Shown here: one piece after another, positions 17,221-45,500 of the stretch
How the letters are laid out: each line of letters begins with the position of its first letter
Position numbering within the stretch: position 1 is the first letter of the stretch
Origin: Amoebophrya sp. A120
Taxonomy: Eukaryota > Protista > Dinoflagellata
Direction of reading: 5' to 3'
DNA length: 64,000 nt
Assembly: GCA_905178155.1 (NCBI GenBank)
Contig: CAJINV010000014.1
Coordinates: 654,116 to 718,115, forward strand
Notes under the pieces: generated by a model
The model's database searches: none
Told to the model about the DNA's origin: nothing
What the model saw: only the letters and a program-made list of their open reading frames with translations
Program-made: the position numbers and the translations under genes

Positions 17221-18649
17221 AAGAGGTTTCTCGTTGGTGATACAGATCTACTAGAAGCACCTGGATCTGGTGGAGAGAGCACTGACTTGTAGTACGACAC
17301 TTGTAGTTGTACAACTGCTGGCACGACGAACCGGCTCTACTTGTTGCACGAGGACTTACACTTCTAAGTAAAAGCACCAGAGACCTCTAGTTGGAAGTAC
17401 CTACCGCTATCTCCAGGCAAGAAATCAGAATATATAATTGCGGATTCAAATGTTGATGATCAAGTAGTATTTCTCCTTCTTTTGCCTTAACAGGACGACC
17501 AGAACGAACGGCACACAGAGCGGGAACAAATTCAAATAGAAAAGGGAGCATGACGTGTTCTTCCTTCGTCGCGGCCGTCTCCTAGTACTAGTAGGTACAA
17601 TAAAAAATCTTCATGTGGGGACGGACAGGAATCAACAATGCCTAGTAGTACCAATTCTGTACCAGCGTGCAGCTGATTTTTAGCATGAGAAGCAGTAGCT
17701 CCTGCTGCTATAATCGCGACAGGACTCTTTAGTTGTGCTAGTAATGGCGGAACACGACAGGAGCAGGGCGGCAACGGCACGACCAAACGATGCATGTTCA
17801 AAGTGCACCGCAAATTGTATTGTATTTTGGGCAGTTTGCTTGTTCGGGACTTACGGTGAACAATTCTAGTTTTGCCGAGTTGTGGTCTAGAGGGGTTAAT
17901 ACCTTGTGGACGAGAAATGATATTGGGGCTTCATAATTTCTGAGCTTTGGGGGTCGGTGAAGCTGAATGATACGGAGGGGGCGAGAAAAAAAGTGGAAAA
18001 GTCGTCACAGTAAACTAAAGCGAAGTAAAGCGCCTTAGTTTTGAATATGAGAAGCACCAAAAATACTCAGCCTCCAAAACAATGTAAGTACTTATTCTTT
18101 TTTCGTTCGCTGCACTTTTTGTTCTTACTACAAATGCTTAATCGTCACAGCGTTGTTGTACTATAGGGATTTAATAACTGCATGAACATGATGTTTCTGA
18201 AACAAAAATTGATTTCTAGAGAGACAGACTGCAGAAATCTGTCTCTGGCTATGCTTACTTACAAAAAGTACTTTAGTGCTCTGAGAATGAGTGAAACTGG
18301 TGGGGGGTTTAGTGGTCTGAAAAGTGACCCTCATGGATACTGGGTCAAAATGGGAGCACATGCATCGGACTTGTTAGAGATAAGTGTAACATGTGATGCG
18401 TATTGCTATAGATACTGACTCATTCACTTTCATGTTCTTGTAGTCGTACCGTACGTTATTTATGATTATGAAAAACAATCTCATGACAAAATATTGATAT
18501 GGAAATGGAACAAGGTGTCGATCGGAGCTTGTGTTAGAACAAACTCCAAAAAGCGTTTCAAACAATCGAATTTGCTTCATCATCAAATCATAAAGTAAGA
18601 AGTTCCCGCCTTCCTCATGCACTGACGCCTCTTTGTCGGGCTTCTTGCT

Positions 18650-21600
18650 TTATTTCTTCTTTTCCAGCTTGTTGGTCGTTTTCAATCCAGATTTTTGGCT
18701 CTTCGCCTTGTGCAAGATTCTCTTCTTCGCTTTTTGCCTGTCTCCCGGGGAGGCGCAAAAGGATTCAAGCAGCGACATTGGCTGTTTGTCGTTTGCGGCT
18801 TTCTTCTGCAAAACGGTCTGGGATTCCGGGGACAGCTGCCGCTCGAAAAAAGCTGCTTTTTGCGCGACCAGCTCCTCCGTCAAATCGCTCAGGTCGTTCA
18901 CGGTTGCAGGATATGCCTTGCAAAAGTACTATCGTGCTGATCGATGTGCTGCTGCTGGTACTAGAAACTGCAAATAAAATATTTATACACTCACATTTTT
19001 CTTTTTGAATACTGTAGCATTACAAAATAATTTGAGACTTGTTCTCTTGTCATGTATATTATTTTTTCGCACAGCGAAGTAGAAGCACGCACGACCTCTG
19101 TTATCAACATCAAGTGTTTATTTTTTTCCACAAGAAGTCCTAGTACGAGTACTTACACCACGATAGAACATACTTTTGCACAGGACATACATTGTTCAGC
19201 CCTTTGCTCGCGATCTGCCGGTCCTCGGGGGTCATATCCATGTCGTGCGCCACGTGGTCGTCCGCGTGCACGCCCGCGATTTTCCGCGCAAGGTCCCTGG
19301 CTTTGGTTTTGCCGAAGCCCACGTCGAGTAGGGCGAGCTCCGCGTCGTGCATCAGATCGAGTTATCAAATGCAAAAGTGTCTGGGTCTGGAAACTTGTGA
19401 TGCTGGGTGGCGTATCGTGAGGAGGCCACAAGTGCTGGCGCAGCATGACAAGATTCTGAGCTTCTAGGTGTTGCCTATTCTGCATGACAGACTGCGTTTC
19501 TGCATGACAGAAAAATGGCGCTCTTGGGTAACGTGCATGACAGATTTCAGAGTCATGCCAGACAAGCATGACAAACATGCACTCTTCCAGACCCAGACAT
19601 TTTTACATTTGATACGAGTCTCTGCTCCTCCGTCGGTCCTGCTGTGTTCTCGTCGTCCGTGGTCGCAACCGGACTTTTCTTGCTCTTTTTCTTCGTCCCG
19701 CCAACGCCGCGCGTCGAGGACTTTTTCGTCAGTTTTTTCTTCCCCGCGGATGAATGTTGCGCACCTTTCTCACTTCCCCCGCTCGTGCTGGTCTCTGTCC
19801 CTTTGCTGCTCTTGCTGCTTTTCTCGGAAGCAGTAGCGGAGATCGCGCCGACCGCGGCTTTCATCTTGGTTTTCGCTGACCTGCCTGCCGATTTTTTGGA
19901 AGCGGAAGAAAGAGTTGCTTTCGTCGGCGGATTCATAGCAAAAGAAATCTCACTCTCACTAGTGTCCTCCCCCGCCGTAGCGCCGGCGGCCGGTTTTTCC
20001 TCGAATGTCTTTTTCGGCGGCATCATTTGCTGGAAGGCTTGCAGCTGCGTCGCGGTTTCCGTCTCCCCGAACTATCCAGGAAAAAAACTGTGGAAGTGTA
20101 AGTTTGTAGGAGGAGCAGCATAACGAATTCGTTTTGCGTAAATATACAGAAAAAACCTGTCATGTGCAGCTAGTACGTGAAAACACGTATGAGACACGGC
20201 TTTGAGTTTGACGCACTTCCAGCATGACAGGAAGCGTAACTGTTTTGCATTTTCTGCATCACAGATTTACACTTGCAAAGTTTTTTTTCTTGCATACGAA
20301 CCTGACATCATCGTTCACTGCGAGGGCGGTCAAATCGAGCGTCCGGGTGATTTGCCCCAGCGGCGCACCGCCTGCTGCTCCACCTCCCGGAGGAATCGAT
20401 TTGTTGACGGAAGGCAGGACACGCTCGAACAACGCGTTGAGGAGAAACACCTTCTCCACGTTGCTGTCTTCCCCGCCCGACTTGTTCGTTCCGGTTGTCC
20501 GCAGCTGCGACGACCGCGCCCGGGTGCTGGTCTGCTCGGCCTGCAGCATGATTTTCTGCCGGTCCGACTCCTCGCAGTACTGCTCAAAGTCCTGCCACTC
20601 CTGCAGATCGTTCAGCCCCAGCTGCACAAAATACGGGTGGGACCGGTTGATCGACTTCGGGGGGCCCGCCGAAGACGTGTCCGAGGCGCCGGCGCCAGTA
20701 GGTTTCACGTTCTGCCCCGCGACGTACTCGTTGACCGCAACGGTGTACTCTCCCGTGTCCACCAAGTTCTCGGCTTTTTTCACCAACTTCGCCGCCACGA
20801 AACCGGCCATCTTCTCCGAAAACCCGGCCGTTTGTAGCCGCATCATTGCCTCGTCCAGGGTGAAGTTGGCCAAATCGAAGTTGACTTCCGGCACGGGCTT
20901 CTTGTGCTTCGTCTTGCCCCTCTATGACAGCGCACAACGAACTCCCTGGGAGGACCCTCATTTGTATATTTATTTTTAGCATGAACGGCAACACAAGCAT
21001 CAGCAAGAATGCCGATTTTGCATGACAGATTTGCACTGGAGTGTAGTGCTATTTGGACTAGTGCCAGAACTTGTGACGCAAACAGTGCCAAGAGGCAAGA
21101 AAGGCTGGATTAGGTATTTTGCATGACAAATGAGGGTCGTGAGGGGGACGTCGAGATGCGCACGGTCATACCTTCTGGTCAAAGAATTTCGCGGTTTTCA
21201 TCTTTTCCATTTCCGCAATGGAATTTCCAAACGCCCGGAGCTTGAGCTCGTCGGTCTCCCCGTCCATGTGCTCCGCCAAGTCCCCCGCCATGGCTTGCCA
21301 CTCGTCGACGGTGACCAGCTGCGCAATCTGGTTCATCGCCGTTTCTTCCGCCTTCCGGACCAGTTTGGGGGCTAGGTAGTTTGCGAACTTCTCCGAGTAC
21401 CCGACCTTCAAAAGCTTTATTACAGTGAAAAATGCCCCGACCCCGGAATTTGCAGAAGTTTGTCATGCAAAGTTTCCAAATGAAAGCTTTTTGTCTTCTT
21501 GCATAAAAGGATTACGAGCGTTTCTGCTGCAGAGTCTGGCTCTAGGTGCGCAAGCGCAAGGCGCCTTGTGCATAACAGATCCAGCTGCTGTTGGGCTAGT

Positions 21601-24600
21601 ACTTCGCAACACAAATTTGACCTATTCAGCATGGACAATGTGCGATGCTGAGATATGCGAGACGGGGAATGTTTCTGTTAAAAAGGTTTGCAATACAAAT
21701 GCTGCCAAGCTGGGAGGTCGTGGGGGTATTTTTCATTGTAATAAGCTTCTTCGTCGCCTCCTCCGTCGTCCACCCCGGTTTGTCTTTGTTCTTCTCCGCG
21801 TAGTAGGCCGCGGCTTTCTGCACGTATCCTGAGTAAAAACGTCCCCACAGCAGAGTCAAGATGGGAAATCTGCTAGACAAGTCTACAAGTTTTGGCTGTT
21901 TTGCATGACAAATTTGGACTCGTAGTGTTGTGCTGTTTGAGCTACCTCAAAAGCATCACAGTTCTAGTATATCATGCTGATTGGAGCATGACAAATTCCA
22001 AAACACCACTAGAAAATGCTTCTTATGGGGTTCCGCATGAGAAACATTTTCAGCATGCAGATTTGCATTACAACTATGGCGTGGGGGCGTTTTTCAATAC
22101 GATAGCACGGACCTTTGGTTCAACGCCACTGCTTTCAAAAATCCGCGGAACCGCCCGACCCGTTCGGGATCACCGGAGTCCACGAAAGACAACCCGAGCC
22201 GGCCGAGAATCTGCAGATCGGTGTCGTTTTCCGGTTCCACTATGGCGTTCTCAAACGTTACATTCTCAACTGTTAATGCAAGAATGGCAAAAGTTAAAGG
22301 AGGCAGATTGCGCCTCTTTCATGATACAAGTTTGGCGCAGATTAAAGTGCAGCTATCTAGCGCGTCGAGAACTTGTCATACGAAGCAGCTTGACTATGTA
22401 GATAACTATGGCAAGTCTGCATTACAAATTCATGTAACAGTTGAGAATGTAGCGTTTGAGAATGCCATATGCACCAAAGCATCATTGTTCTTCACCACCT
22501 CGACGTCGCACACCTGTCGCGCCAGTTTCTTCGCGTACGCTTCCGTCAACCCCGCGTCCTTCAGGGCTTGTATCCTGTGCAAAAGTATCGCACTCGTAGT
22601 AATTGCAATCATGCTGCATTACAAATTTTTGTCTTAAAGGTAAATCCGCATTACAAATTTGATTTGCAATGCTGGGCGAATCTGTAATGTAATTTAGACT
22701 ACTAGTACGATGCTTTTGCATTGCATAGCTTGCTCCACCACCCCAAAGTCCAGCGTTTTCCGCTGCAAGGCTTCCAAAACTGGGTCGTACGCACCGGCGC
22801 TCGTTGGCGCGCTGCTCTTCGGAAGATCCTGATCTTCTTTGGCTTTCTTCCGACAGCAGAAAAGGACGAACACGATCAGCGCGAGCAGGGCCACCGCGAG
22901 CACGACCACCAGGATGAGGCAGCAGTTGTTCTCATCTCCGGCTGGTTCCTCGTCAGTTCCCCCGGGAGGAGAGGACGTGTCGGGCGGCAGCACCGTGGTC
23001 GGTTCCGCCCCGGTCGTTGGAGCTTCTGTCACGATCTCATGCCCCGTCCCGTTCGTTGGTACAGTGGTGGTCGAGGTCGTCGTCGTGGCAACTACGACCG
23101 TGGTTGTGGTCGTGGTTGAAGAGGCCGTAGTCGTGGTGGTTGTCGTTGTGGTGGTTGTCGTGGTGGTGGTGGAAGTCGTGGGGGCGACACACGAACGGTT
23201 TCCGCTCCCATCCACCTGCTCGTCAAACCCAAAGTCGCAGCTTTTGCAAATGTTGGCATTGTGCGCAGTGCAATCGGCTCCAGTCGCTGCGGTTCCGTTC
23301 AGGCAACCGCAATTGTTGGGAACGCATAAGCGTTCATTAGAAGCTGTGGCTCCGCTTTGGGCACCAGAAGAGGATGTTGCTGGGTGAAAGCCGGCATCGC
23401 AGGAATCACAATAGGTCGCTTCGTATCAAATGCAAAAATGTCTGGGTCTGGAAGATTCCGGGACTTGTGATGCATAGTTTGCATTATCCATGACGCATGT
23501 AATGCATGATCTAGCACCACAGAATTTTAGAGGGCTTCCTGATGCCTATTTCGCATGAGAAATGCCCTCTCCGCGTAACACAAACTGGACTCCTGTTGTT
23601 GGTCACGCAATACAGATTTTTTTGGAATCCAAAGACAGCATGACAAGTTGCAATCTTCCAGACCCAGACATTTTTGCAATCCATACTTCGTGGTGCGCCG
23701 GGCAGCCAGGTCCCGTCACGGCGCTCCCGTTCTCGCACCGGCACTGATTCGGATTACACGATCCGTTCCCGAGGTAAAAGCCCTCGTTACAGCCTTCGCA
23801 AGCAACACTGCTGTGGCCCACTTCCTGACACTTCGTGCCCGTCGAAGGAATTCCGTTGTCGCAGCGACAGGTGAACTGAAACGCCTGGTGTTATTCTGAG
23901 TAAAAACGTCCCCACCGCAGAGTTGTCATGCTACAAGATGTTTCTAATGTGGAGCTCCATGGCAAGCATTTTCTAGTCGTGTTTTGGAATTTGTCATGCT
24001 CCAATCAGCATGATGCGCTAGGTCTGTGATGCTGGTGCACTAGCTAAACAGAACTACACTACGCGGAAAGACTTGTGATGCGAAACAAGCAAAGCTGGTT
24101 GACTTGTCTAGCAGATTTCCCATCTTGACTCTGGTGTGGGGACGTTTATTTTTACTCGGGATAGGTGCAGCGGAATTTTCATGCAGGCCATCACCGTGAC
24201 GCAAACAATGCCCACGTTGTCGCCCACCTGGCCCTCTACCTTGTTCCAATTCTCCCCTTGCTGCAGTTCGTAATTTGTATCGGGCTTAAACGTGAACGGA
24301 GTCCCGTCCGCGGCCTCCGCAGGCTCCCCGGCCCCGCTCTCCGCACGCCAATGCAGGTGCGTGCCCCACATCCCACTGCTGTTGCGCGCTAGCACCGCGT
24401 AGTTCCGGTTCCCGGCGTCCTCGGGAGACGGGAGGTCGCGAAAGCTCGACAAGGGGCGGTAATAGGATTCACCGTCATCAACTGCAAAAATGTCTGGGTC
24501 TGGAAGGTTGTAACTTGTCATGCTGTCTTCGGATTCAAAAAAAATCTGTATTGCATGACCAGCAAGAGAAGTCCAGTTTGGTCTACACGGAAAAGGCTGT

Positions 24601-26177
24601 TCTCATGCAGAATAGGCATCAGGACGCCCTCTAGAAATACGTGATGCTAAGCCATGCATTACAGCCATCAGGGGCCATGCAAAATATGCATGACAAGTCT
24701 GGCAATCTTCCAGACCCAGACATTTTTACATTTGATAACCGTTCCAGCTGTACCAGAACTGCTTCGACTTCTCCGTCTCGTTGGTGTTGAGCAGAAAAGT
24801 ATCGTAGGGAAAAATCTCCCCTCCCCATACTGAGAAGGCATGCTGCTAAAAATTTGTGATGCTGATTTGTGACCACAAATCCTGTCTCTCTTGCAGGGGG
24901 GCAAAAGCAAAGAGTCCGCCGCTTTATTGTTCCGGCGATTTGTAATGCTGTTACGCCTACATCGAAGGCCTCTGCTATGCTACGCACCTATACAAAAACA
25001 GCCCTACGCAGCCTGAGGTTTTGCCTGCAGTGCCTCGTTCTTGCAAGACAGAGCTGATTTGTGTACACAAATCCAGCAACAGAAATTTACGTTTCAATAT
25101 GGGGAGGGGGGATTTTTCATTCTGATAAAAAGTGCCGATGCGTCTGTCGGACGAGGTGGCCCACTGGTCTACGCGACAGCCGCAGCCCCCTTCTTTGACC
25201 TCGAATGAACCGTCCTCACTGACAGCAGTTCGCTCGTATTCGCACTGCGAGCAGCAGCCAATTCGCCCCACTTCGTACTTGGCCGTTATCTGCGACACCT
25301 CGCCCACTGACGCCGGGATTCGGAAATGCCCGACCAGGTCCTCGTTCGGCATCCCGAAGCCCCCGAAACAGATTTGGTTCGCCGGGTTCTCCGGGTCCTC
25401 GGACCTTGGGCCCGGGTTGGTCCGGCTGGGAAAATTTTCGAGTTCCCACCACTCGCGGTCGATGAGTCTGCTGGTAAAGTCGTCGGGGTTTTCTACGGTA
25501 CCATTGAGCACCTCCGTGTAGCCGGGTAAGATCACCGCCACTTCGACGTGCTGCGTCACGTCGGAGATATCCACGGTGCCCCACTTCCCGTATTCGTCCC
25601 AGCCGTACCGGCACGGATCCGGCTCGGTTTCTGGGAGAGGAACCACCTCCTTCGGATTCCCGAACGCGCCCGCGGTGGCAATTGCGTCGATCCAGTCGCT
25701 GCGCGGCTTTCTGTGCGGGTGGGTGTTGATCGGGTAGCAGGCGTTGTGTTCGAGAAAAAACTCCGTGGCGTTCTGACAAGAAACGCAGATGTTCGCTCCG
25801 TGCTCTGTGCAAGCGGGGCCGGTGGCTTGCTGCCCATTTTCGCAACTGCACTCGTTTGCCACGCACTGATCCTCGTAGCAGGCGGGGACCTCGTCGCAAG
25901 GGTCCTCGAGCTCCGGGGTCGTGTCACAGGGGCGGTCGCATTTCATGTGATACCCGGGCGCGCACCCCTTGTAGCAGTAGTTTTCCGGGGTGATCACGAA
26001 ACCGTCGTTGCAGGAAGCGCAAATGTGCGCGCCCGGGGCCGTGCAGGCCGTGCCCGTTGCCGCCGTGCCGTTGCTGCACCCGCACTGGTATGAATCCACG
26101 GTAGTGTCTTCGCCGTCGAGCAGGGTCCGATTTATCTTTAGTCCGTGGTATCTTCGCCGAACAGTGTCGTCGTCGAG
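18650..26177 (-). CDS. Type-I surface protein: Cys-rich CxCxNG..TG..C repeats, Thr-rich mucin stalk, TM helix, long cytoplasmic tail
   Basis: 13 exons join in frame after removing 12 elements. Repeats such as CGCSNGTAATGTACTAPGAHICASCNDGF; poly-Thr run at about 23060-23190; TM CCLILVVVLAVALLALIVFVLFCC. The 5' end probably continues into 27034-27983. Confidence 0.8.
18912..19180. mobile_element. Degenerate introner family B
   Basis: TSD CAGGA; right TIR end merged with the TSD; frame restored (NNVCP/ATVNDL). Confidence 0.7.
19363..19614. mobile_element. Introner family A
   Basis: TSD CGAGT, frame restored. Confidence 0.9.
20073..20296. mobile_element. Introner family E
   Basis: TSD CGAAC, frame restored. 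Confidence 0.9.
20923..21170. mobile_element. Introner family G (TATGAC..GCGCA...GACCCTCATTTG)
   Basis: Imperfect TIR, TSD CCCTC/CCTTC, frame restored. Confidence 0.8.
21418..21743. mobile_element. Introner family F (TIR TATTACARTGAAAAATRCCCC)
   Basis: TSD AGCTT, frame restored. Confidence 0.9.
21825..22104. mobile_element. Introner family C (TIR TATCCTGAGTAAAAACGTCCCCAC)
   Basis: TSD GCACG, frame restored. Confidence 0.9.
22241..22469. mobile_element. Introner family D
   Basis: TSD TCCAC/TGCAC, frame restored. Confidence 0.88.
22571..22727. mobile_element. Introner family B
   Basis: TSD GCTTG, frame restored. Confidence 0.9.
23424..23685. mobile_element. Introner family A
   Basis: TSD CTTCG, frame restored inside a Cys repeat. 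Confidence 0.9.
23892..24163. mobile_element. Introner family C (opposite orientation to 21825)
   Basis: TSD GGTGT/GGTGC, frame restored. Confidence 0.88.
24476..24737. mobile_element. Introner family A (opposite orientation to 23424)
   Basis: TSD ACCGT; left end CAT; frame restored (FWYSWN/GESYY). Confidence 0.9.
24800..25127. mobile_element. Introner family F-like
   Basis: TIR tatcgtagggaaaaatctcccctcccca / tggggaggggggatttttcattctgata; TSD AAAAG; frame restored. Confidence 0.85.
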
Positions 26178-26939
26178 CTATTTATCACAAGAAAAAGTGT
26201 ACACGTACACGGTTTCGCGTTTTTCCGAAAAAAATTTTTTGTTGCCTCCCACAAGAAGATCGCTTGTATCATTGAAAGCACTCGCTACGAAGCTAGCGAG
26301 GCTGGGAATCTGCCAGAGCTCGAGCATCTAGATCACACGCCCAAAGGGCCGCAAGCAAGGCCCAGGATAGCCGGGAAAGATAGACTCACTTAGCTTGCCG
26401 CCGTTCTTGGCCTCATCTCATAACTGCGACAACAGGGTCGAGATGGCCACCAGCTCTCGCTCTGGTATCTAGAGGCGGGCCGGCGGCGGCTCCTACACCC
26501 AACGGGCCAGGTTCTCCTGGCACCGGCGACGAAAGGCGCCCAGCAACGCGCCGCAACCATCAAAACCAGACCGGGGCCTCCTTTTGGAGAGGTAAATCGT
26601 CCATACCATGCAGTCTGGAGATGATGTACACGGTTTTTCTTGAGGGCAAGAAAATCCCCAGGAAAAGAGGCAAATTTTTCTGAATTTTGAGTGCGAAAAT
26701 CGCGCAACACCAAAAAACCGTGTGCATCGCATCTAGCCTGCATGGTATGATGGATGTACACGGTCCGCAAAGTGGTCAGGCCCGGGGACAAGCATTCTGA
26801 ACCGTGTACATCAACCATACCGCGCGGTCTGGATGCGATGTACACGGTTTTTTTGGGCTCGTTATAAATTTTGTTGCAATTTTGCCACTTTTGCTACTAG
26901 TCCGTGGTATCTTCGCCGAACAGTGTCGTCGTCGAGCTA
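26139..26939. repeat. Exact 42-bp direct repeat flanking a 717-bp insert with GATGTACACGG sub-repeats and a fold-back
   Basis: TAGTCCGTGGTATCTTCGCCGAACAGTGTCGTCGTCGAGCTA at 26139-26180 and 26898-26939; imperfect inverted repeat at about 26712-26764 vs 26801-26854. Confidence 0.85.
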
Positions 26940-27033
26940 GTATTTTTTGGGCGATCATGTTCGTTATCTCCGACGGTGGGGAGCAGATTCATACATAATA
27001 ATAGATGATTACCTCAGAAGAAACTTTGAATCT

Positions 27034-27983
27034 CTATTTTATAAAAGTAGCATTCATATTATCAAACACAGAACTAGCAAGTTTTTCTGAAAAAAATACA
27101 ACTCCTGGCCCGTGCTTGAAGGAAACGGCCTGCGCTATCCTGAGTAAAAACGTCCCCACTCCAGAGTTGTCATGCAAATGTGCAATGACAGGAACATTTG
27201 TAATGCACAGCTCCATGGGAGGAATTTCTCGTGGTGTTTTGGAAAAATTTGTAATGCTGTAGTAAGCAGAATGTGAAAATGGCTTTCTCATGCGGCTTCT
27301 CTTGCCAATTAGCACTACTACACTGCAGAGGAAAGCTTGTCATGCACAGCTTCCAAAACTTGGAGATTTGTGTTGCTAGATTCCACCCAACTTGACTATG
27401 GGGTGGGGACGTTTTTGCTTAGGATATGCGCTCTGTCATCCTGGACGATGTCCTGGACGATTTGCTGTTTTTGTTTCTGCTCCACCTGCTGCCGCGCAGC
27501 GGCCGATGAAGCAGCAGCTGCAACTTGAAGGGTCGACGTTGCAGCTGGTGCGCCCGCTTCTACGTGCTGGTCCACAACTACGTCTTCTTGAAATGCTGAT
27601 GCTGCGTCTCCAGGAGAGGCAACATGATTCTCGAAATCTTCTTCCATGATCTTATTTACAGGAACAACAACTTCTTCTTGCAGGAACTTCTGGGCTGCAA
27701 CTGTCCTTCTTTTACTGTGAAGAGCAGCATGCTGACCCCCGGCACCGCCTCCACCCGTAGTTGTCATGCTGGTGATGGCAATCTTCCGCCTCTTGGTCGC
27801 ACTTTTTCCTTCGCGCTTCTCCTTGTTGCGGGTTTTCTGTGCCGTGAAAGACAGGGCGTTCGCGAAAATTGTGCTGTTGTCAAGGTCTTGGCCGTTGATA
27901 TTAATACAACTACTTCCTAGAAATAGAAAGCGACAGTAGGAAGAACAGCAGGCTGAAAAAGACAATACCAAGAAGGTCAACAT
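27034..27983 (-). CDS. Signal-peptide-bearing exons, probable N-terminus of the Cys-rich surface protein
   Basis: MLTFLVLSFSACCSSYCRFLFLG...; QDDRA/QAVSFKHGPG joined across the 27136 element. Confidence 0.5.
27136..27426. mobile_element. Introner family C
   Basis: TSD TGCGC, frame restored. Confidence 0.9.
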
Positions 27984-30030
27984 CTTGTTTTCCAACAAAT
28001 TGAACTTACTCGCTCCCCGCCGCGCGGCTTGGTTCATGACCACCAACTCCGGCGGGAAACGAGAAAAGAAGAATTTCTTGTGGATAAACATCAATTTCTA
28101 ATTTTTCGAGGGGTCGTGGTAAAAAGAACAACCTTAACCTTTCGGGAACAAGATGGCGCTGGGGGTTTTTGTTGTTGGACGGAGGCGTACGATAGAAAAG
28201 TGATTTCTATTGATTTCCTCCGACGAAAGGACGACGACGAAACAATCAACGTGAGTTCTTTGTTCAGTGACGCGGCCTGCAAAACCGAAAAACTTCATGC
28301 TCATGACAACTTCTATTTGAACGACGCAGTAGTTTAGGAACGTACGACGTGCCATACTGGCTGTTCCGAGACCACTTAAGAGAACGAGAAGGACGAATAA
28401 ACAGAATCTGAGCGGCCGACGCCGGAAAGAACGCAAAATGAAAATTTGGTACATCAGTGACACTTATAATATTAGTTCTCAAAATGAATCGGACGACCAT
28501 GACAAATAACCGAAGACAGGAGCTGCACGAGTGACATGCACGTACTTGAGTAAGCACCTTCACGCAAATCTGCTGCTGCATAGCATAAGCATTTCTAGGT
28601 CGGTTTTCTTTTTCAAGCCGAGTAGAAAGCGAAGAAGAGGCCACACGACCAACGCCACGGTACGCAACACCGACGAGAATAAAGTGGAAATCTCTGTCTC
28701 ACGAATATAAAAGAGTCCTAGCATTCGTAAAAGTGCTTTTTTTTGACATGTACAAGCATGTTTCAACAACTACGCTCGAACAAGTTCAGCGGTTAGGAGG
28801 CGGCATACCATATTTTGCAGCGCCATCGCCTGTCGATGTGGTCTGATATTAAATCACGCCAAATAATTACAGACGAGAAGAGGCTTGCCAACTGGGCGGG
28901 TCAGCGCACTATTTTTATTAGAACCAGAACTGCAGGATCATCTACTCCAAGATTGCTTGTTATCTTCATCTTGTTCGCACATCTTTCATTATCTTTTCAC
29001 TTCGCTTACTTATCGTTTATTTCGTTAGTTTTAGTTTTACTGAAATATATGCCAATCAGTTCTTCTAAACGCTGCTCAACGCGAGAAGCAAATAGAAATT
29101 GATGACGCGCAGATGATCTTCACGACACAATCTGATTGGGAAATGCAAATTAGACTTTGGCTTTGCCATTGTTGGGGTTTTGTGTATTCTGGGAAAAACC
29201 AAATAATCTTCGCACGAAGTGCAAGAGCACCTTCTAGCTCGTCTCTGTGTCCAAGGGACAAGGCGTTCTGGGGTGGCCTTGTTGCAGCTGCGAGCTGCCG
29301 GGCGGGGGGCACTGCCACTGCAATACCAACACAACAGAGGCGCCGATAACTAATCTTTGGTCTTGTATCTTATCGTACGTATCGTCCGAAGCGGAATGCT
29401 GTGGACGCGGATTGTCGCTAGGTGTGGGCGGCTTTTTTTAAGACCGGCTAAGTACTCAGATGTATCATCGACGAGAGGCGCTAATGCTATAATTCGTTGT
29501 TCTTTTACTTTTGTTCACGACCTTACTATTCGTTTTTTACTTTTATGCTTTTGCTTATCCCACTTATTTTCAATAAGTTCTGGGAGCAGTCGTAGCAAGA
29601 AGGAGCTACTTCCTTTTCATTCTTTTACGCCGAGATGAACGGCGCCGCTTCAGTTTCCAGATATCCTTTCTTTCAACAAATAGATACGAAGCCAGAGTCT
29701 TACGAAGTACGTCCTCCATGATGTTACCCAAAAACTTTGAGCACCGCCAGTTTTTTTTTTTCTTTTTGTTTTTTCATCATGCTAGGAAATATAACTACTT
29801 GCAGTAGAAGCGACCACTGCGACGACGACCGTAGTTCCATGCATCTGAAATCGGCACTACCAGAAGGTCAAGGAAGCGGCTTGAATGATGTTGGTCCGCT
29901 GGCCTGCTGGTGTTGCACAGAGCTGCACGAACAACAGCTTCGATGAACTTCAGGATTCTAGTCATCGATCTTGCATATTCGAACTTTACCGTTCGCATCG
30001 GCATCTTCCTCGATCGCTGTTTATAATATT

Positions 30031-33000
30031 TTACAAAAGTAAAATATCCTTCATGTCATCCGGTAACACGCCGTCCGGCCCCTTCATCTCATCGGGTAAC
30101 ACGCCATCCGGGCCCTTCTCCTCTTGATCCATCATATGCTGGTCGTGAAGAACTTCTTGGTGGCCAGCATAATTGCAGGTTGTACTAGGCATATTAGGCT
30201 GCTGGTCGTGTTGCTGCTGCTGATGTGCTCCACCGCCGCCACCGTCGTGGTGCATGTGTTGGTCTACATCTTGGTGCTGCTGCCCGCCTGGTGCAGCCGC
30301 TCCGGAGGAAGATGGCGAAAAGGATTGCAGGTGTTTCTCCTCGATTCTGATATCCACGTGATCGTCGACAAAGACCAAGTGCATCCTGAGCAAAAACGTC
30401 CCCACCCCATAGTCAAGATGGGAAACCTGCTAGAGAAATCAGCCAGCTTTGGTTGTTGTGCATGACAGGTTTGGCCTCGTAGTGCAATCCTGTTTAGCTT
30501 GTTCAGCGGCATCACAGATCTAGCCTATTATGCTGATTGGAGCATCACAAATCCCAAAGAACGACTAGAAAATACTTCTCATGGGACTCCGCATGAGAAA
30601 CATGATTTTTCTCAGCATGCAGAGTTGCATTACAACTATGGCGTGGGGACGTTTTTACATAGGATAAAGTGCTCCAACACGTCCGTGAACAGAACTAACT
30701 GCTTCTTCAACGTGTCAAGACTCGGCTTCACGATAAACTTCACGTTTTTCTGTCGACTATGCACTGCAAAAAGTAGTACCGTACCCATAGTCGTACCTAC
30801 TAGTTGCGAATTAATAGAGAAATCTATTTTCTCTAGCTAAATCCAGGATGACACATAGATTTTCTCATGCTGAACATATACTCCCAGTGTACGATACAAC
30901 TTTTGTACAATTGCATATCGGCACCCTTCTGACAACCGTTCCTCCGTGACCCGGTGCAGCGCCTCGCGATCCGCGCGGCCGTCCCCCAGCGCAAGCACAT
31001 TTTTCCACCGCTGATTCGGATACCGGGAGTAGAACGCCTCGATTACCTTTTATTGAAAAATTGTTGAACAACAATATTTCTCAAGAAGAAAATAAAGAAC
31101 AACCGACAGCTGCGCAGTTCCAGTTGCATCGAGGTCTTTTTATCGCCGCGAAGCGAATTAGAACCACAGGAGTTCTTGTATAAATCAACAGCAGAATGTC
31201 GGCGCCCTAAACTAACCCTGAAATCTCAAAAGTGAAAGTACTATACCTCCTTAAACGCGTGGGTTTTCCACCCCGCGGGGCTTTCCACACCTTTCGGCTC
31301 AAAAGTGCTCCTTGCCGATATCACGGTCATCGAAGACAGCAGCGGCAGCAACGTGGGGAGCCACTTTCGGCAGGACACCTGGGTCCACCCGGTTTCCGCG
31401 TTGGTGATGATGACCACGCGGCCGAACCGCAGCGCGGTGCGGATGCAGTTCTCGCCGATCTTGGCCAGCTCGTACAGGTTATCCTGTGCAAAAGTATCGT
31501 ACTCGTACTGATTGCGTTTATGCATTACAAATATTTTTGCTAAGGCAAATCGGCATTACAGATTCAATTTGTAATGCCAAGTCAATTTGTAATGCAACTT
31601 ATACTAGTACGATACTTTTGCAGTTCATACAGGTTTTCCTGCATCTCCTCCCCAACCGACTTCTCCTTCACGTGCCCCGTTTTCGGGTCGATCTCCCGGT
31701 GGGGGAACCGGGCCGCGAGCTTGTCGAAGTCCGCGTTGGGGTCGTTCACCAGCAGGCCGCATGACTTAACATAGTAGCTGGGACACAGGGTATCGTCCCA
31801 GTCAAAGATGATAATCGTCTGGTCGGGATTGCTGTACTCCGCCTGCGACCCGGTGGTCATCTCGGAGTAGGTCCGCGTATTCCTCGTGGTCGCGTGGGAG
31901 CCCACGGTCACCTCCGAGAACGTGCGGGTGGTTCGCTGGTTCGCGGAGTGGATGGTCTGCGAGAACATGTTCTGCGAAATGGAAGCGGTTGTTGTTCCCC
32001 CACCTCCAGGGTAGAAGTTGCTGCTGGTTGCACTTCCCATGTTCAAGAACGAGGACGCGCCACCTGCTCCACCAGCACTGTGCGAGCTGTTCGGGTAGGA
32101 GATACTATGCGCCGGCCCCAAATGGCCGCCCGAGTTCGACGAAAGCGCGCTGCTCTGCGAGAGCGTGCGGTCGCGGGACGAGAGCGGCAGGTTGGCATTC
32201 ATCGGGTAATTGTGAAACTGCGACTGCAGTTGTTCCTGCTGCTGATTACTAAGATTTTCATTTCCCGGCTTGTTCGCTGTTGTCGTCCCGTTCGAAGTCG
32301 GGACCGTACCAGCTCCAGGAACTCCTTCTACCAGCTGTCCGGTGTAGCTACTGTCAGCAGAAAGTTCCTCTGCCATCATTGCAGCTGCGGTGTTGATGTT
32401 ACAGTTATTTGTGCCAGCATGGTGTTGGCCAAGAACATTATTGATATTGCCCTTGATTATTTCTGCTGTAGGTGTCGCCCCCGGGTCGTCGTGCTTCTGA
32501 AAGTCATTGCGGCCTCCTGCTGCCGCGCTCATTGGCTGTTGCTGCTGCGCAACACCTCCTGCCTGATTGTTGCTTATTGCGGTATTGTTCGTCGAGCCAT
32601 TTATTTGCCTTTGCGGTTGTTCACCACCGTGCTGATGGTGCGCGGCCCCGGAAGGTGGTGATGGCGCCCCTCCCACTCCGCTGCTGTTGCTGTGATATCC
32701 CCTGCAAAAGTACTATCGTAGCCGTATCGAAATAAATTGCAATTTCGCATGACCGAAGAAGAAGAACATCCTGGTCTATTTCTTTGCAACTCCATGGCGA
32801 TTCGCGTTCGTATCACAAAAACTATACTACTGCGATAAACTTTTGCATTGCGTATGCTGCTCATCCAGTTGATAGGGGGTACTGGAACAGAGGTATGCAA
32901 TGGGTACTCGAAATTTTCAGCCAGCGCACCGTCGAGCATGGAATCTATGTCGGCCGGGGGTAGCTGGACGAGGGATTTTGTTGTACCGGTATCGCAGCAA

Positions 33001-36000
33001 AAAACTGCAACAGTCTTTACTTCAACGGCAACGCCATCTTGTATTAACATTAAGCACTTACAATTCCGAAACAAGTACTGCAGTTTCTTCATACGTAAAC
33101 TTTCTTTTTCTACTGCCATCATGCTCTGTATGTGGAGAACGAGGTCGGCAGTAAAATTATGCATTGGTTTTCCATTTCCTATTCAGCGCACCATGACAAG
33201 TACCGTGTGGCGTCCCATGCAAACTTTCTCTGTTGCAGCTGCGTTGAAGTTCGACTGTCACGATACGGCTTCACTTGATACGGAGAGAAAGCTGTTGGTG
33301 GAGATGTTGGTGCTCCACCGGACGTTTTGGTTGCATCTGCTCCGTCGTGTCTATTCTCGGGCAAGGCGCCGGTATTCATTGCAGTGTTCCCAGCCTGCTG
33401 CGGAAGCTCCTGGGATGACGCGATTGATTGCGTCGTGACCCGCAGTCCCTCGGTCGTCACGCTCAGAAAACCTGTTTTGCAAAATGACCGGTGATGGCTG
33501 TCTTTCCCTTAGTTCGAACCATAGGAATAGTACCTCAAAAACGCAAAAAAATAGACTCAAAAGCTTGTTTCTTATATACGTGTGCAGCTATCAGATGATG
33601 CAGAAGCAGAACTAGTAGAAAATTATCATCGCTACGTGGCGCCCCGTCTTGCTGAAGCTGGTTCAGGCCGAACATATTGGCGCTGTAAGGTGAAGAGGGA
33701 CCACCAGGACCACCGGTCGTACTACTTGTCGCGCCGGCGGCCGTCGCGCCAACGTCAACGGTCGTGTGCATGGTGTGGCTGTAGGAGTGCTGCACGACCG
33801 GTGGGGCAGTGCCACCACCACCAGGAGCTCGAAAGTTTTGGACGTCGGACGTGTAGTTGATGCTCATATCCTTATGCCCAGCGCCGTCGCCCATAGAGGT
33901 GGTGTATGAACTGCAAAAGTTAAAGTATCGTATTCGTATAAATGCATTACAAATTTCCTCAGCATGAGAAATAAAATTTGTAATGCGAATTTACCTTAAG
34001 AAAAAGATTTGTAATGCATGATTGCAATACGAGTACGATGCTTTTGCACAGGATATGGTGGTTTCGAGCACCATTTGGATTTCGACCTTTTCCTTGAACC
34101 GCTGTTTGTCGTAATATCCTGTGTAAAAACGTCCCCACACCAGAGTCAAGATGAGGATCTCGCAACACAAATCGAGAAGTTTTGGGGGTCCAGCATGACA
34201 AGTTCGTCTAGGTATTGTAGTGCAGTTTAGCAAGCACAGCCGCAACACAAATCCATCTGCTCATCCTGTCGACAGCATTGCAAAGCGCAAAACGTGAGAT
34301 TGGAAATGCCTCTCATGTGTATGCGCATTACAAATCTTCCTGTAGCTGCAAATCTGCATGACAACTCTGGGGTGGGTACATTTTTGCTCAGGATACGTAG
34401 TTTGCGTCGTTCATCGCTTCATCCGCCCACGGGTTGCCGTCCACCGAAAGCTATGCATAGCAAAAAAATCATGGTACTAGTACTGGCGCCTCATGCGGAA
34501 ATTGCAAATGTAATCACATCACATCACTGATCTCTGTACTTATAACGCTTTCCTTTTCTCCTGAAGAAGCGAGAATTTTTGTCAACATGCTCCAGCACAG
34601 CTGCAAGAACATCAATCGCTAGTACCAGTAGGATCGTCATGCTTTTGCCGTGGATAAAAACGCGCGGCGGTGGGACCGGGACCGTCGGGGCTGTATCTCG
34701 TCGTCGCTCATCAGCTGCATCCTCTCCGGCATGGGGAGTCGGTTGGGGTGCTGTGCCTGACCGGAGGTGGACTGGTTGCTCACAAGACTCCCGAGCGAAA
34801 GCCTGGCGTCTGAAGAGTTCATGGAATCGATCGACATCGTCCTGTCACCATCGAAGGAGGTTATCAACATCTCCCGATCAAGTTGTTGATGCTCATGTAG
34901 GGGGCTTGTTATTATATCACGACCTTGTTGGCTATGATAATCTAGTAGTACTTCCCTCCGTTTACTACTTTCATCTTCGCCAGCATGTAGTTCTACTTGC
35001 ACGCCCTGGCCCATCTCCTTCTGCACGTTACTCCTACTTGGCCTGGCCGGCGGCGAAAATAAGGAGGATGCGTTGCTGGTCGCGGGGGCACAGTTACTAG
35101 TATTATTGCCCGAGGACATGTTGACATTCGACGAAAAGAGTGCGCTGCTGTTGTTCTGTGGTATTGGTAAAAATCCTTCTTCTCGATGATCGAGGACAAC
35201 ATGCTGTTGATTTCTCGCGTCTGTCTCTTCATCCTGTATGTTGCCAAACCGACTCGCCGTGCGGGGCGTAAACCGGTCGGGCGCGTCTGGAAAGGGGGAA
35301 AGGTCGGTGCCTAAATTCAACTGAAGGTGAGAGCTATCAACTGTAAAAATGTCTGGGTCTGGAAGAGTTCATGTTTGTCATGCTTGTCTGGCATGACTCT
35401 TAAATCTGTCATGCACGTTACCCAAAAGCTCCGCTTTTCTGTGATGCAGAAACGCACTTTGTCATGCAGAATAGGCAAGAACACCTAGGAGCTCAGAAAC
35501 TTGTCATGCTGAGCCAGCATTTGTAGCGTCATCATGAGACGCCACCCAGCATCACAAGTTTCCAAACCCAGACATTTTTACTTTTGATAAGAGCGACCCT
35601 GTTGTTGGTACTGTTGCTCCAGTATGCAGGACAAGAGCGATTATATCGCATTGGTGATGCAGAAAATGAATGACGTGTGCGCTTCTTAAGGTGAGCGGGA
35701 AAAATCCTCTCGCATACTATTGAGCAATCCTGAAGGTAAGAATATCTGCAAACAAGATGAATCTCATCTGCACACCGGGTGACGTTTCACCGCCCGTTTT
35801 AGCAGTGACCGGCCACCTAGTGGGAGTTTGCCTTTGGCGCCTCCTCTTGCCGCAAGCATTCAAGGACTAGTGCCACTACCTCCTCATCCGTGGCTCATGT
35901 CCTAACCTCCGACCAACCACCTGGCCACCCCTTCTCCTCCGGTGGTCGCCAGGTGTCGAACAGGACTACCTAATAACCGGCCTAAGCCTGGCCGCTGTAC

Positions 36001-39227: not shown

Positions 39228-39374
39228 TGCTTGAAATACGAATTTACTAAAAGGGATCTGTGCTTGAAATACGAATTTACTAAAGAGTTGCTTGAAAAGT
39301 AATTACCATATAGAACTGTCTTTGCTTGATAAATCGATCTAAAAACGTTTTGCTTGAAATACGAATTTACTAAA
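39228..39374. repeat. Intergenic minisatellite, 5 units of 28-34 bp
   Basis: TGCTTGAAATACGAATTTACTAAA exact at 39228, 39261 and 39351; degenerate at 39289 and 39323. Confidence 0.85.
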
Positions 39375-39599
39375 GTGTGCTACACGAGAAACCAAGACGA
39401 GAAAAGGACGCAGCTGTGAAAACTCAGACGCAGTGTGGAAGAGGTACATTGGTGACATAACCTAACGATTTCTGGTATTTAGATAACTGCTGTAATTGTC
39501 CGAAAGGTGAACGCTGCTGCTACAACTGCTACAGTCGCTCTCAATTTTTTTCCATCTTAATTTTGTGTTCGAGCCTTACTATTGTACATTACAAACAAA

Positions 39600-42500
39600 C
39601 TACTTGGCCCCGCTTAAGATCGCCTTGGCCTTCTGCGCGGCCTCGACCTCGGAGGCCATGGCTTCCTGTCGTTATTATAATGAAAAATGCCCCCACCCCC
39701 GAACTTGGGAGCAATTGTATTGCAAGCCTTCCCAAATGAAACACTCGCCCTCTTGCATCTATCAGCATCACAGGTGTTCAATCGTGAAAAGCAGTAATTT
39801 GTATTGCAAAAGACCCCAGCAAGAGCGGCGCCTGTCATGCAAGCGATGCTCTATACGACTAGACCCTGCATCAGAAAGATTCATAGTCCTTTCATGCATG
39901 ACAAAAAGTTTTCATTTGGGAACCTCGCATCACAAATTTTTGTAACTTTGGGGGTGGGGGCATTTTTCGCTGTAGTAGTCGTGCGGTGAAAAACTTGAGC
40001 AGGAAGTCGCAGTCATTGTGCAAAGCGGTGTTGTATCCTGTGCAAAAGTATCGTATTCGTATAAATGCAAGACTTGCATTACAAATCTTGTTCTTAAGGT
40101 AAATCCGCATTGCAAGTTTTATTTCTCATGCTGGGGGAATTTGTAATGCATTTATACGAATACGATACTTTTGCAAGGCATATGTTGACCTTGCTCAATC
40201 CCTCGATCTCTGCCTTGGTGTTCTCCACGGCTTTCTCAGTGTCCGCTTTCTCCTGCACCTGTTTTCATTTTATGCTCTTGATATCATGGCCATACAAGAA
40301 GCAGCCATAACAGAGATGCTCGGGACGAGCGAGCGACCAAAATAACATCATATAGAAGTTGTCAGTGCCGCGCACAAGGATTCAAAAATGTACGAAAAGA
40401 GTCAAAACGTTGGAAATCCAAGTTGAAGTTGTACCTTGTCAGCCCGCTCTTCTTCCAGACTGGCGACCGTTCCATAGCTAGCTTCTAACGCGGCCACGGA
40501 ATCAGCGATGTACTTCTCGTAGTCCTTTTGGGCGGAAGACTCCGGTTATGCCAGTGGACAACTACCATTCTTCCCCTTGCTTCTCTCATTTGAAGAGCAG
40601 GTGGCGTCGCAACAGAAACAGCCTAAAATACAATTACCTACTCCCCCCGTAGCAGGTGGAGCCCGGTCCGTCTAAATACCTTCTAGGCATGATCGCGCAT
40701 GATCCTGCATCACACAAATTATGAAGGCAGGCACAGTAAGTACTACTACAATTGTCCACTGTCATACCGTCACGAGCGCTTCCTTTTCTAGGTCCTTCGA
40801 GTCCGTCATGATTTTGTCCATCATGGCCAACACGCCCGTGGAAGCGTCCTGCTTCTTGTAGCCGGACAGTGACCCCGGCATCGGCGTTTGCTTGTGGTGA
40901 GACAGGGACTTTGCACTCGCTTTCAACTGCAACAAAGAGGCCTTTTCGTAGTGGTCTTTCAAAACCTTCAGCGCTTTCGACAGCACCTTCTGCATCTCCC
41001 GCTGCTCTATGACATTCGCAAACGCTACACTCTCAACTGTTACACGGATTTGTATAATCAGTGCAAGAATAGCACAGGCGAGAGGGAGAACTTCCTTGCG
41101 CGTCTTGCATTACCGATTTGGTGCGGATTCTAGTTCTATTTACGCTCGCGTCGAAAATTTGTCATGCGAAGTAGCTTGATCGTGGCGGTATTGATAGTGA
41201 TTGTGATCCTGCATGGCAAATCATAGTAGTAGTTGAGAACAATGTAACGTTTGCGAATCCCATACGCTCGGTGACGGTCTTTTGGAATTCCGCGTTTTCC
41301 GCCTCCCGGTCCTGCTCTGCCTTGGTCATGTCTTTCTTGGTTTCTGCGATCGACTCTTTTTCGGCAACCACGTCGGTGTATACATTGCAAATGTGTCAGC
41401 GTATCATGGAAGGACGCAAGGTTTGCTATGCACATTTTGCATGAGTCCTGATGTCTGTGACGCATGCCCCAGCATCACAGATCTTGTGAGGGATATCTGA
41501 TGCCTTTACCGCATGAGAAATGCCCTCTCGCGATGGCAAAAGCTGGACCATCTCTTTTGCTGTTCATGCAATGCAGATTTTTGGAATCCAAACGCAGCAT
41601 CACAAGTTGCATTCTTCCAGGCCTAGACATATTTGCACTTGATACGGCGTCGATCTTCGCGATGTCCTCCACCAGCGCGGCAATCTTCTCTTCCGCCAGC
41701 TGCAGCGCACGCTTCGCTTCCGTGCTCTCCTTCTCGTTTTTCTTGATGTTGTATACATTGCAAAAGTGTCTGGGTCGTCTGGAAGATTGCTGACGTTTGT
41801 GATGCTGTGTCTGCTTCTTGACGCAGAAGGTGTGCCATGCAAGGCCTAGCATCACAGGTTTTGAGGCGGTTTCCTAATGCTTAATCCGCATGACAAAGAA
41901 CGCCTTCCTTCGGCGACAGGGAAAGGAGGCACCTTTGCTGTCTAAGCATGACAGATTTTTGCGTGATCCAAGTATGCATCACAAGTTCGCATCCTTCCTT
42001 CCAGACCCAGACACAACTTTTGCATTTGATATGTTGGCCCCGCACTCGTCCTTCGTCTTCACATCCAGGGCCATCTGCTCCTATGAGACAGCACAACCGA
42101 CTCGTCCTTTCTCTTGCAGTTCTTCTTTTTTTGTCATGCAAAACACCAACTCCACGCTTTTGGTTTTTCCTTTGCCAGCCCTATGCATGACAGATTCAAC
42201 ATCCGGATGAACACCGAAACTGCACTAGAGACGGTCTTCAATAATTTGTCATGCAAAAGCTGCGACTTCAACTCTGCTTGTGTTGCTGTGGACCATGCCA
42301 TGATCAAAGGGGGACGAGGGGGAGATGTATGCGCTCTGATAGCTCCTTGATGTCCGCCACGAGTTCGTCGATCATTTTCTTTACTTTCTCGAACGCGTCT
42401 AGTGTGCATCCTGTGCAAAAAAACCGCACTTGTATGAGTTGCACTCATCTTCCTGCATCAGATTATATCTCACTCCCTTTCTACATGTACATTCATCAGC

Positions 42501-45500
42501 GCTGCAAGCTGCGTGCTTCGATGAACAAGTTGAAAATAAAGTTCGTGATGCGATAATGCAAACTACGTGCGATGCTTTTGCAAAAATGCATAGTCTGACA
42601 CTCTCGGCAATCAAAGCCAGTTTCTGCTTTTGCGTCTGCATCTGGTTCTGAAGCTTCGCGTTTTGCAAGTCCAGGTTCACTTCATTCCATGACGGCAGAG
42701 AGTCCAGCGTGTGTTGGAGCACCTTCGGTTTTTTTAAGACAACAGGGGAAGTGACAATAGAAATGCGATCGACAAACAGAAAAGCTTCAACTGAACGGAA
42801 AATAGATTTGACAAAACGGAGCTCAACAAAAATCGGCTGGATAAAGAATAGCGCACTGAATTTTCATTTAAGTACCTTTTGCGCCAACTTTTTGCTCCTG
42901 CTCAGGCTTGACTGCGCCTGCGTTTGCACAAAGAGGCCGAACTCGCTGGGCTGCAGCGCGCCGCGCGTCTCGTCCGAGGTCATGATTTCGATGGCCTTGG
43001 CGACAGCGGCGATTTCGGCGTCACGCGCCTCGGTGCGGAGCTTCCAGTCAATGTCAATGTTGGTGCACTGGTCTTTATGCATGGCAAAAGTAGCTGATGG
43101 TGACATATCAGTGCAAAGCACATGACAGACTTTTGGAGAAATGCTATGTAGTAGTAGAGTTCGGCTAGAAAGGAGATGGATCTGCCAACATGCGCGATTG
43201 CGATTAGCATTAGTAGGAGTGCACTATAACTTTTGCAATACATAGTCTTTGACTTCGAGCAGCACCGTTGTGTCGGCGTCCACCTGCGTTATCCTGTGTA
43301 AAGACAAACCCACGCCACAGAGCTCCTTAATACTATCGCGCTGACTTATATAGTCAGCATGTGCAGCAAGTGTCCTTCTCGTAGTACTATTACGCGACCT
43401 GTATGTTCCCGACAAGAAACATTCAGAAGCATGGTTTATTTTCGTGAGACTTGATTCACGCCGAATCTGCAATGTCGAGACACACCTATGACATGCGTGC
43501 ATGAAAAAATGAGTCCCGTCGTGGCTATGGGGTCCTTCTCGTGGGGAATGTGTTTTTACACAGGATATGCGCGCGAATCTTCTTCAGCTCTTCCTTGCCC
43601 TCGGTCCCCAGGAATTTCGCCTTCCCTGCCAGTGCCGCGTTATGAAAGGCGAGTGTGTCTTAGATCATGTGGAAAGCTGTTTTGCAAATCTGTGACTTTT
43701 AATACATGCTCACTGCGATACGTCGTGGTCGAACAGGACACGTTCCTGAGTTGTTGCGTGTTGAGTATTCCGCACGGCAAGATGCGTCTTCGAATTCGAG
43801 CGTAGAGGATCTTTTGCCGCACAAGCATCTCCACAGAGCTCAAAGTCATGTCAGGCAGGCTCAGGCATGACAAGTCTTGCAATTTTCCAAACCGAGTTTA
43901 GTACTACTACACATTTGCATGTGATACGTGTTTTCCTCGAACGACTTTCGTGCGGCTTCCAACTGCTCCGTAGTCGACTTCTTGAGCTCCTTGTACGCTT
44001 TTTCCTCCGTGGCAATTTTGGTATGAAGGTGAGCAACTCATTCTATTCGATGAACTTGAACGCCTGCTGTTGCAACACTTGAATCTGATGCAGGGTGCTC
44101 ATCATCAGCATTTATCCTGCACTTGAGGGGGACGTGCGCAAATAAAATTCTACTACTTGTTCTGTCATACCCGAGAGACGACAAGACCTGCATCTTCTAA
44201 AAACAAACTATGGCGCTGTACCGGTTGGTCATCTTCTTCAACCGGAGAAGGTGGAGAGCCTGCGAGAGATTTAATGAGTTGTTCCCTATCATACTTTTCT
44301 TCCAGTTCCTTCAAATCGGCGGAAAACTCGTCCTTCATGCTGTTCAGGATGCCAAAAATTTGCCCGGACCCAGACTGATACTTCCCGAGGTGTTCGGCTT
44401 TCGCGTGCCTATGCTGTGCAAATGTACTAACGCAGCCGTATCTACAGAAATTCGTACTAAAATTCTTTTTTTGCTGCATAAATATTGACCCAAGTTCCAC
44501 TTTTTTTTCGGTAAATCAAAATTTTCCCTTCATCAACCTGCAATACTGACCCGATATTACGTTTGCACTTCATAGCTTTTCGTCTGCAGCAACACCGTCT
44601 GCAGAATTTGCGCGGCAGACTGCTCGTCAAGGGAAGGACGAAAGTCGGCTGTTTATTTAAAAGTTTAATTGCAGCTGAGAAGACATAAACTACAGACCCT
44701 TCGTTCAAAATCAAGCAAAAATATTCGATTCTCCATCTCAATTATCTGCCTACTACCGACATTCACATTCTTTAGACGGAGCGAGAAAATAAGTACATTT
44801 CAAAGACATTCTGTTGCACGACATCAACCTGTTTCCAAGACTGTGCAAGCTTCCGATTAACTAAGTAATACCTTCCAATGCTCTAGCGAGCTTCATGCTG
44901 GCGCCCGTGCCGGTGTTGGCCTGCAAAAAGGACTTCTGAAGGGGCTTCTGGTTATTGAAAGCGAAACACTGAAATTTTCGAATTCGTCGAAATGTCAGGG
45001 ATTTCCATTTTAAAATCTACCTTCCGCTTGCCAAACACAATCTGCTCGGCTCCAAAAGTCTTAGATTGTCCCGCGACCAGTGTTGGCAGCTCTATTCAAC
45101 TTTACTTCCTGCCCAATACTTGGGGTCTCTCAATTGGTTTGGTAGTATGCAAAGCGCTAGCCGTTATTGTGATTCTAAAATTTCAGTTTCTTCATCGTCT
45201 TATCCGCATGCGAGTATATCTTTCCTTTGTCCTATCGACGCACAAAATCCTGAGCGCCGACTGAAGCTGCTCGTGTGGTCTTTTTGTCGTTGTGGGCTAT
45301 CGGACCACTCTTTTTGTCATTCTGAATACCAATACGGCTTCTTGATAAAGTTATGCGTTCGCAGTTTTTGTTTCATCTGCAAAAAAATCAAAACGATCTA
45401 TACTACTCGTTTTCACACATCATGACAAATGCCGAAAAAACATGTTCGGAAGAACCATGACAACAGGTCGTGCCGCTCGAGATTTATATATTCCTCTAGG

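Follow-up and report, generated by a model that had tools for sequence, protein, structure and literature searches.

How can one and the same inverted-repeat element be removed from transcripts as an intron whichever way round it lies? The question is raised by a 64,000-nucleotide (nt) stretch of the genome of the parasitic marine alga Amoebophrya sp. A120 (contig CAJINV010000014.1, positions 654,116 to 718,115; hereafter the window), where one minus-strand gene, gene 1, contains two pairs of elements whose members are reverse complements of each other. A first-pass annotation had proposed that the boundaries of these introns are read from symmetric information, either a stem formed by the terminal inverted repeats (TIR) or a protein bound at both ends. 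The ends are indeed symmetric and the direction of the interior is irrelevant, but the cutting appears to be directional. We judge it an even call that a modified, directional spliceosome reads TAT and ATA at the element's ends, places its cuts 1 nt ahead of the former and 4 nt past the latter, and is helped by the stem at introns that do not begin with G.

Elements and their orientation

The window contains at least 64 inverted-repeat elements, mostly of 90-560 nt, which belong to the published introners of Amoebophrya A120. (The 63-element tallies below leave out element 26183, a composite.) They have inverted ends (TAT…ATA; arm consensus TAT-S-N3-TGY-AAAA) and are flanked by a 5-nt direct repeat. 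This 5-base-pair (bp) target duplication leads us to infer that they originated as transposons. At our cut-off (an element score of at least 33), there are 41 elements in the window and none in either of the two Markov-simulated windows that served as controls. The 5-nt repeat is perfect for 37/63 window elements and for 266/354 elements in a larger sample (shuffled expectation 1.2).

This larger sample consists of 143 related loci (L001-L143) from one metagenome assembly, found by a motif scan. It includes no RNA, its strands are inferred, and its repeats may have been flipped by assembly. Of the 354 elements, 350 were scored, 274 were assigned a strand (177 of these also a family), and 262 had a duplication matching at 3/5 positions or more. 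The strand caller gave the right sign in 23/26 tests in the window and agreed with the call from open reading frames (ORFs) in 146/161 cases. Among these loci we found no orthologous flanks for an empty-site comparison.

All ten copies named in the first-pass annotation begin where it placed them. In gene 1, the identity of the interiors is 0.77 in reverse complement and 0.59 forward for 21825/23892 (family C) and 0.82 and 0.62 for 23424/24476 (family A). The pairs 51871/61968 (family A; 0.85 and 0.57) and 33905/40034 (family B; 0.86 and 0.62) are also reverse complements, as claimed; shuffled sequences average 0.53-0.55 for the named pairs. The remaining pair, 19363/35335, is reverse-complementary too (0.90 and 0.59), but the label of family A did not hold up: these copies share the ends of A, and their interiors cluster apart (family A').

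The host ORFs of the window are on the minus strand. Within the window, the two orientations number 5:5 in family A, 3:2 in C, 1:1 in A', 2:1 and 3:0 in further families, and 2:9 in B, a count that leaves out three weakly linked members (7775, 21418, and 39673). In the related contigs, the stranded and family-assigned elements are near 50:50 (41:30, 24:14, 16:16, 15:14, and 4:3), and both orientations occur within 17 of 30 locus-family groups. A bias in family B was considered and dropped, as its count in the related contigs is the 16:16. The outer tip variants of family A (23424, 51871, and 61968) are not coupled to the orientation of the interior, which suggests either tip exchange or inversion of the interior between the repeats.

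Removal from transcripts

Gene 1 has an intact ORF once 14 introns are removed, and leaving in any single one of them breaks it. The frame is restored at the named copies, as had been claimed. This is not independent proof of splicing, because any coding insertion restores the frame once the element and one copy of the duplication are taken out.

More direct evidence comes from two sets of RNA-type contigs, X3 and X4, which together represent one sample and whose RNA status is guessed ("RNA?"). These contigs are short by exactly the element plus 5 nt, with losses of 229 nt, 1,265 nt (five elements), and 1,144 nt (23424, 23892, 24476, and 24800). The spliced models of gene 1 (Table 1) and gene 2 (6,391 nt) each equal the length of the aligned contig. 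Direct RNA joints are listed in 15 of 22 cases, to which the joint evidence is limited, and include those of 21825, 22571, 30382, 31480, 33905, 34115, and 35335; removal of the focal copies 23424, 23892, and 24476, which are outside these 15, is read from length bookkeeping. In all four of these families (A, A', B, and C), the transcript contigs lack copies of both orientations; the first-pass annotation would have been refuted by retention of one orientation in messenger RNA (mRNA).

We take X3 and X4 to behave as mRNA because they also lack ordinary GT-AG introns and give no cover in intronic and intergenic stretches (26369-27035 and 38375-39708; cover at 39709-41699 is about 1 or 0). Contigs of another set, X1, continue from exon into element ends. 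A raw RNA run from 2026 (X8) gave 141 partial reads, all on element ends and informative about neither strand, level, nor efficiency.

Position of the cuts

A perfect duplication hides the position of the cut, and an imperfect one reveals it. From a few informative junctions, the intron code appears to be N·TAT…ATA·NNNN, with cuts that lie outside the repeat by 1 nt on the 5' side and by 4 nt on the 3' side. Across 14 element joints, a 5' offset of 1 is the only one common to all, and the joint 32985->33282 decides. Gene 3 has no exon cover in X4. Independently of the joints, its spliced model reproduces the 732-amino-acid (aa) annotated protein P0001 exactly. Offset 1 is compatible with all 16 of its elements (45233 permits no other, 41008 requires at least 1, and 44410 at most 1), and three orthologues have Gln and Lys at sites where offset 0 predicts Arg and Glu. 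Also, all nine predominant non-canonical intron types listed for A120 are NT-NN (PMC7789003, Table S4), a pattern to which the preference of the aligner may contribute.

Across the three genes, T is at +2 in 46/46 modelled introns. Six of these are GT-AG introns, some of which start with GTAT in the same register; the other 40 are not GT-AG, and 15 of the 40 start with GT. Neither G nor AG is needed at the intron ends, and we saw no need for a target sequence. Specifically, for 243 perfect duplications in the related contigs, the first intron base is A in 73, G in 70, T in 52, and C in 48, and AG ends the intron in 17, as compared to 13 and 15 at other positions. In the window, GT/GC-AG is possible in any register for only 3/63 elements. 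(A dynamic-programming gene finder built on GT-AG mis-called several gene-3 introns and served for leads only.)

Two trends were dropped. Duplication mismatches seemed fewer at positions 4-5 in the window (12, 11, 10, 5, 4; p = 0.017), and the counts in the related contigs are 17, 18, 10, 12, and 13. Similarly, a drift to G at +1 (3/4 in the window) became 3/13.

A GT-starting intron at 40543-40767 stops 4 nt past ATA despite an in-frame AG 3 nt downstream; this end retains a Glu that is conserved in three orthologues.

What reads the boundaries

Catalysis by the spliceosome is the conclusion that we favor, because the register is common to the GT-AG introns, T is found at +2, and spliceosome proteins are retained: nearly all are present in A120, and U1 was not detected (PMC7789003). 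As we propose it, both ends carry the same TAT…ATA signal and either orientation is removed, likely by a modified and directional spliceosome that cleaves 1 nt upstream of TAT and 4 nt downstream of ATA. In introns with a first base other than G, the end stem would presumably help. Since a copy of the duplication leaves with the element, any coding insertion is erased without a scar, and such elements could thus spread while the protein stays intact. A broader version is that a U1-less machine with the palindromic code N·UAU…AUA·N4 ignores GT and AG and measures from the inverted repeat, allowing scar-free removal at any site and in any orientation, convergent with Euglena; we hold this tentatively, just short of an even chance.

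We consider the machine directional because its two cuts are offset unequally with respect to the direction of transcription. Symmetry by itself requires neither a stem nor a bridging protein, because an inverted repeat presents identical linear motifs on either strand; of the first-pass proposal, the symmetric information survives, and tests of RNA pairing are mixed. The arms are predicted to pair in 46/62 elements, equally on both strands, and sense and antisense folding do not differ (p = 0.76). In the three-gene model, weak end stems are found in 9/21 G-starting introns and 1/25 others (p = 0.003).

First, the boundaries could be read purely linearly, from U-A-U at +2 to +4 and from a T-tract…ATA block whose distance to the 3' cut is fixed, possibly with a branch A near the end; the stem would then be a by-product of the transposon. 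We think this unlikely, though it deserves serious attention. In three GT/non-AG introns whose end stems do not exceed those of shuffled sequences, the 3' cut is nonetheless 4 nt past ATA (32990 from its RNA joint; 43641 and 45233 from the annotation). There is no excess of G-U pairs. In A, A', and B, arm positions 4-10 do not covary within a family, and the outer stem shows little covariation specific to single copies. Fixed spacing from branch to 3' end is known in Yarrowia, Trichomonas, and Giardia (PMC2483917). However, the stem is retained in 24/25 non-G introns, and families A' and C do covary at positions 11-20, although subfamily structure could account for it. The pair-breaking 5' TAC variant occurs 8 times and the wobble-permitting 3' GTA variant twice (both GTA cases were excluded by the strand filter and re-added by hand); this leans towards linear reading, but 8:2 is not significant. 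With these two exceptions, the A at -7 is not invariant, as had been considered.

Two other arm positions drew attention. An asymmetry at position 7 (5 versus 19 in the window) was dropped because it is not evident in the related contigs. At position 15 in L001-L143, the 5' arm has A where the complemented 3' arm has G in 40 cases, and the converse holds in 17, in both interior orientations; this is one of many positions tested.

Second, excision might be independent of the spliceosome and guided by structure, with a nuclease and ligase that measure from the base of the end stem and release circles, as proposed for the nonconventional introns of euglenids. The absence of any need for GT or AG, the failure to detect U1 (PMC7789003), the predicted pairing of most arms on both strands, and staggered cuts like those of the Euglena N3-CDG…CH'G-N5-6 code (PMC12501133) all favor this. 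We nevertheless doubt it: GT-AG introns and stemless GT/non-AG introns share the register, the T at +2 fits a spliceosomal position, and no dedicated enzyme turned up, with no search aimed at one.

Third, a protein, derived from a transposase or from the host, might mark the boundaries for the cutter by binding both ends or the repeated motif GCAT[G/T/C]ACA. With its reverse complement, this motif is sub-terminal and common to unrelated families in the window and in L001-L143. It is enriched in the elements (132 occurrences in 15.9 kilobases (kb), versus 12 in the 48 kb outside) and placed symmetrically. As it is missing from 17/63 window elements, spliced ones included, and is possibly a transposase site, which fits better than a splicing signal, we consider this explanation improbable.

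Finally, excision from DNA, as for the internal eliminated sequences of ciliates, or contigs from a strain with empty sites would involve no RNA splicing and would take advantage of the guessed status of X3 and X4, but it is very improbable given that the same contigs skip GT-AG introns and miss the uncovered stretches named above, and that the contigs of X1 extend from exon sequence into the ends of elements.

Returning to the modified spliceosome and its 1/4 register, several points weigh against them. The X3/X4 contigs come from a single sample and attest presence, not efficiency or strand. Offsets 1 and 0 are separated by a single RNA joint, and the count of T at +2 is partly a consequence of the model. 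The annotated intron 44950-45203 is a degenerate element (TAA…ATA) that is removed as the element plus 4 nt. (By eye, a GA…AG reading three bases longer is also in frame.) As for the stem, its link with G weakens to 3/15 versus 1/25 (p = 0.14) without the GT-AG introns (p = 0.05 in an earlier tally). The link is not seen in the related contigs (0/78 versus 5/184), where detection required pairing. G-U pairs are not in excess in the window (62 versus 65) or the related contigs (166 versus 201), and neither sample shows a branch motif that is asymmetric to transcription.

The source paper leaves open by what means A120, in which U1 escapes detection, removes its tens of thousands of non-GT-AG introns (PMC7789003). 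A fixed register, neutrality to orientation, and the lack of target preference would account for the harmlessness of transposons in coding sequence, and they predict cut sites, a possible location for the branch, and bases to mutate.

Features of the window

Coordinates are collected in Table 1.

Table 1. Host genes and elements discussed in the text, with introns and joints (window coordinates)
Feature	Position	Strand	Remarks
Host gene 1, coding span	18653..28091	-	1,681 aa once 14 introns are removed
Gene 1, spliced model	17829-28152	-	5,928 nt, equal to X4 contig
Family C element, orientation 1	21825..22104		inferred intron 21821-22105 (CT..TG); direct joint 21819->22105
Family C element, orientation 2	23892..24163		inferred intron 23888-24164 (CT..AC); duplication 4/5; length bookkeeping
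Family A element, orientation 1	23424..23685		inferred intron 23420-23686 (GT..AA); length bookkeeping
Family A element, orientation 2	24476..24737		inferred intron 24472-24738 (TT..GG); 3' arm ends ATG; length bookkeeping
Element with imperfect duplication	22241..22469		joint 22235->22470; limits 5' offset to 0-1
Family B element, opposite to 33905	22571..22727		spliced; joint 22565->22728
Family A' element	19363..19614		spliced; record coordinate 1247 fits model (bookkeeping)
Family A' element, opposite orientation, gene 2	35335..35589		spliced; joint 35329->35590
Family B element, minority orientation, gene 2	33905..34055		spliced; joint 33899->34056
Degenerate element	32990..33280		unique joint 32985->33282; intron 32986-33281 (GT..GG), offsets 1 and 4; end stem not above shuffles
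Element-like GT-AG intron, same register	31051..31245		intron 31047-31246
Family B element, gene 3	40034..40182		model equals annotated protein P0001; outside X4 cover
Element with duplication differing at position 5	41008..41264		offset 0 gives Arg where orthologues have Gln
Degenerate element	45233..45503		P0001 reproduced by offset 1 only
Family A element	51871..52132		ORF continuity only
Family A element, reverse of 51871	61968..62229		ORF continuity only

Inspection by eye of the gene 1 protein suggests repeats rich in cysteine, a run of threonines, and a probable membrane segment. The 922-nt intron at 26178-27099 can be read in two ways owing to a duplication inside it: 42 nt of exon and acceptor sequence at 26139-26180 recur exactly at 26898-26939, and the alternative is a 162-nt G·TAT…ATA·CTAG intron plus a 760-nt intron. 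Nested inverted repeats lie within it at 26602-26853. Further degenerate candidates for element-like introns, in which a single arm is intact or the duplication matches at 3/5 positions, lie at 1203-1402 and 56976-57307.

Comparison with known systems

The elements match the A120 introners of Farhat et al. (2021; PMC7789003) in organism label (the exon at 46074-46418 has 100% identity to a protein named Amoebophrya sp. A120), in inverted ends of TAT, about 7 variable nt, and an A-tract, in direct repeats of 3-5 nt at the borders, and in forming repeated families of non-canonical introns, with non-GT-AG ends, whose removal is supported by RNA. That paper terms the borders variable, whereas here orientation is tallied and a fixed register is deduced. 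In those parts of its text and supplement text that were searched, "orientation" is used of genes only, and its Figures S19-S25 may already show part of this. In the literature searched, which did not extend to subscription papers, we came across no claim that A120 introners are neutral in orientation or have a fixed 1/4 register. The explicit 1/4 code for A120 introners is new here; the family and the either-orientation property are known.

The introners of Polarella glacialis (10.1101/2020.10.14.339549) and Aureococcus (Huff 2016, via PMC10228655) also combine TIR with a target duplication and make introns in either orientation. Because this was published for other algal introners, the orientation result is less of a surprise than the first-pass annotation scored it. 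Those introners bring along or co-opt GT/GC/GA and AG sites, and their orientation is biased; neither is the case here, where GT/GC-AG ends are available to 3/63 elements in any register and neither G nor AG is enriched.

In Fritillaria borealis (via PMC11282704; 10.1101/2025.08.15.670264), TIR introns derived from miniature inverted-repeat transposable elements are removed by an adapted U2 spliceosome, with a preference for AG-AC/AG-AT ends, as compared to no end preference beyond the T at +2 here. The nonconventional introns of Euglena (PMC12501133, PMC11170887), an unrelated lineage, have self-complementary end motifs, fixed unequal spacers, and no GT-AG, as here. They use CAG…CTG with spacers of 3 and 5-6 nt rather than TAT…ATA with 1 and 4, and hybrids are rare there, in contrast to the GT starts among our non-GT-AG introns. 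Though the motif itself differs, the tested spacer code of Euglena offers the closest logic.

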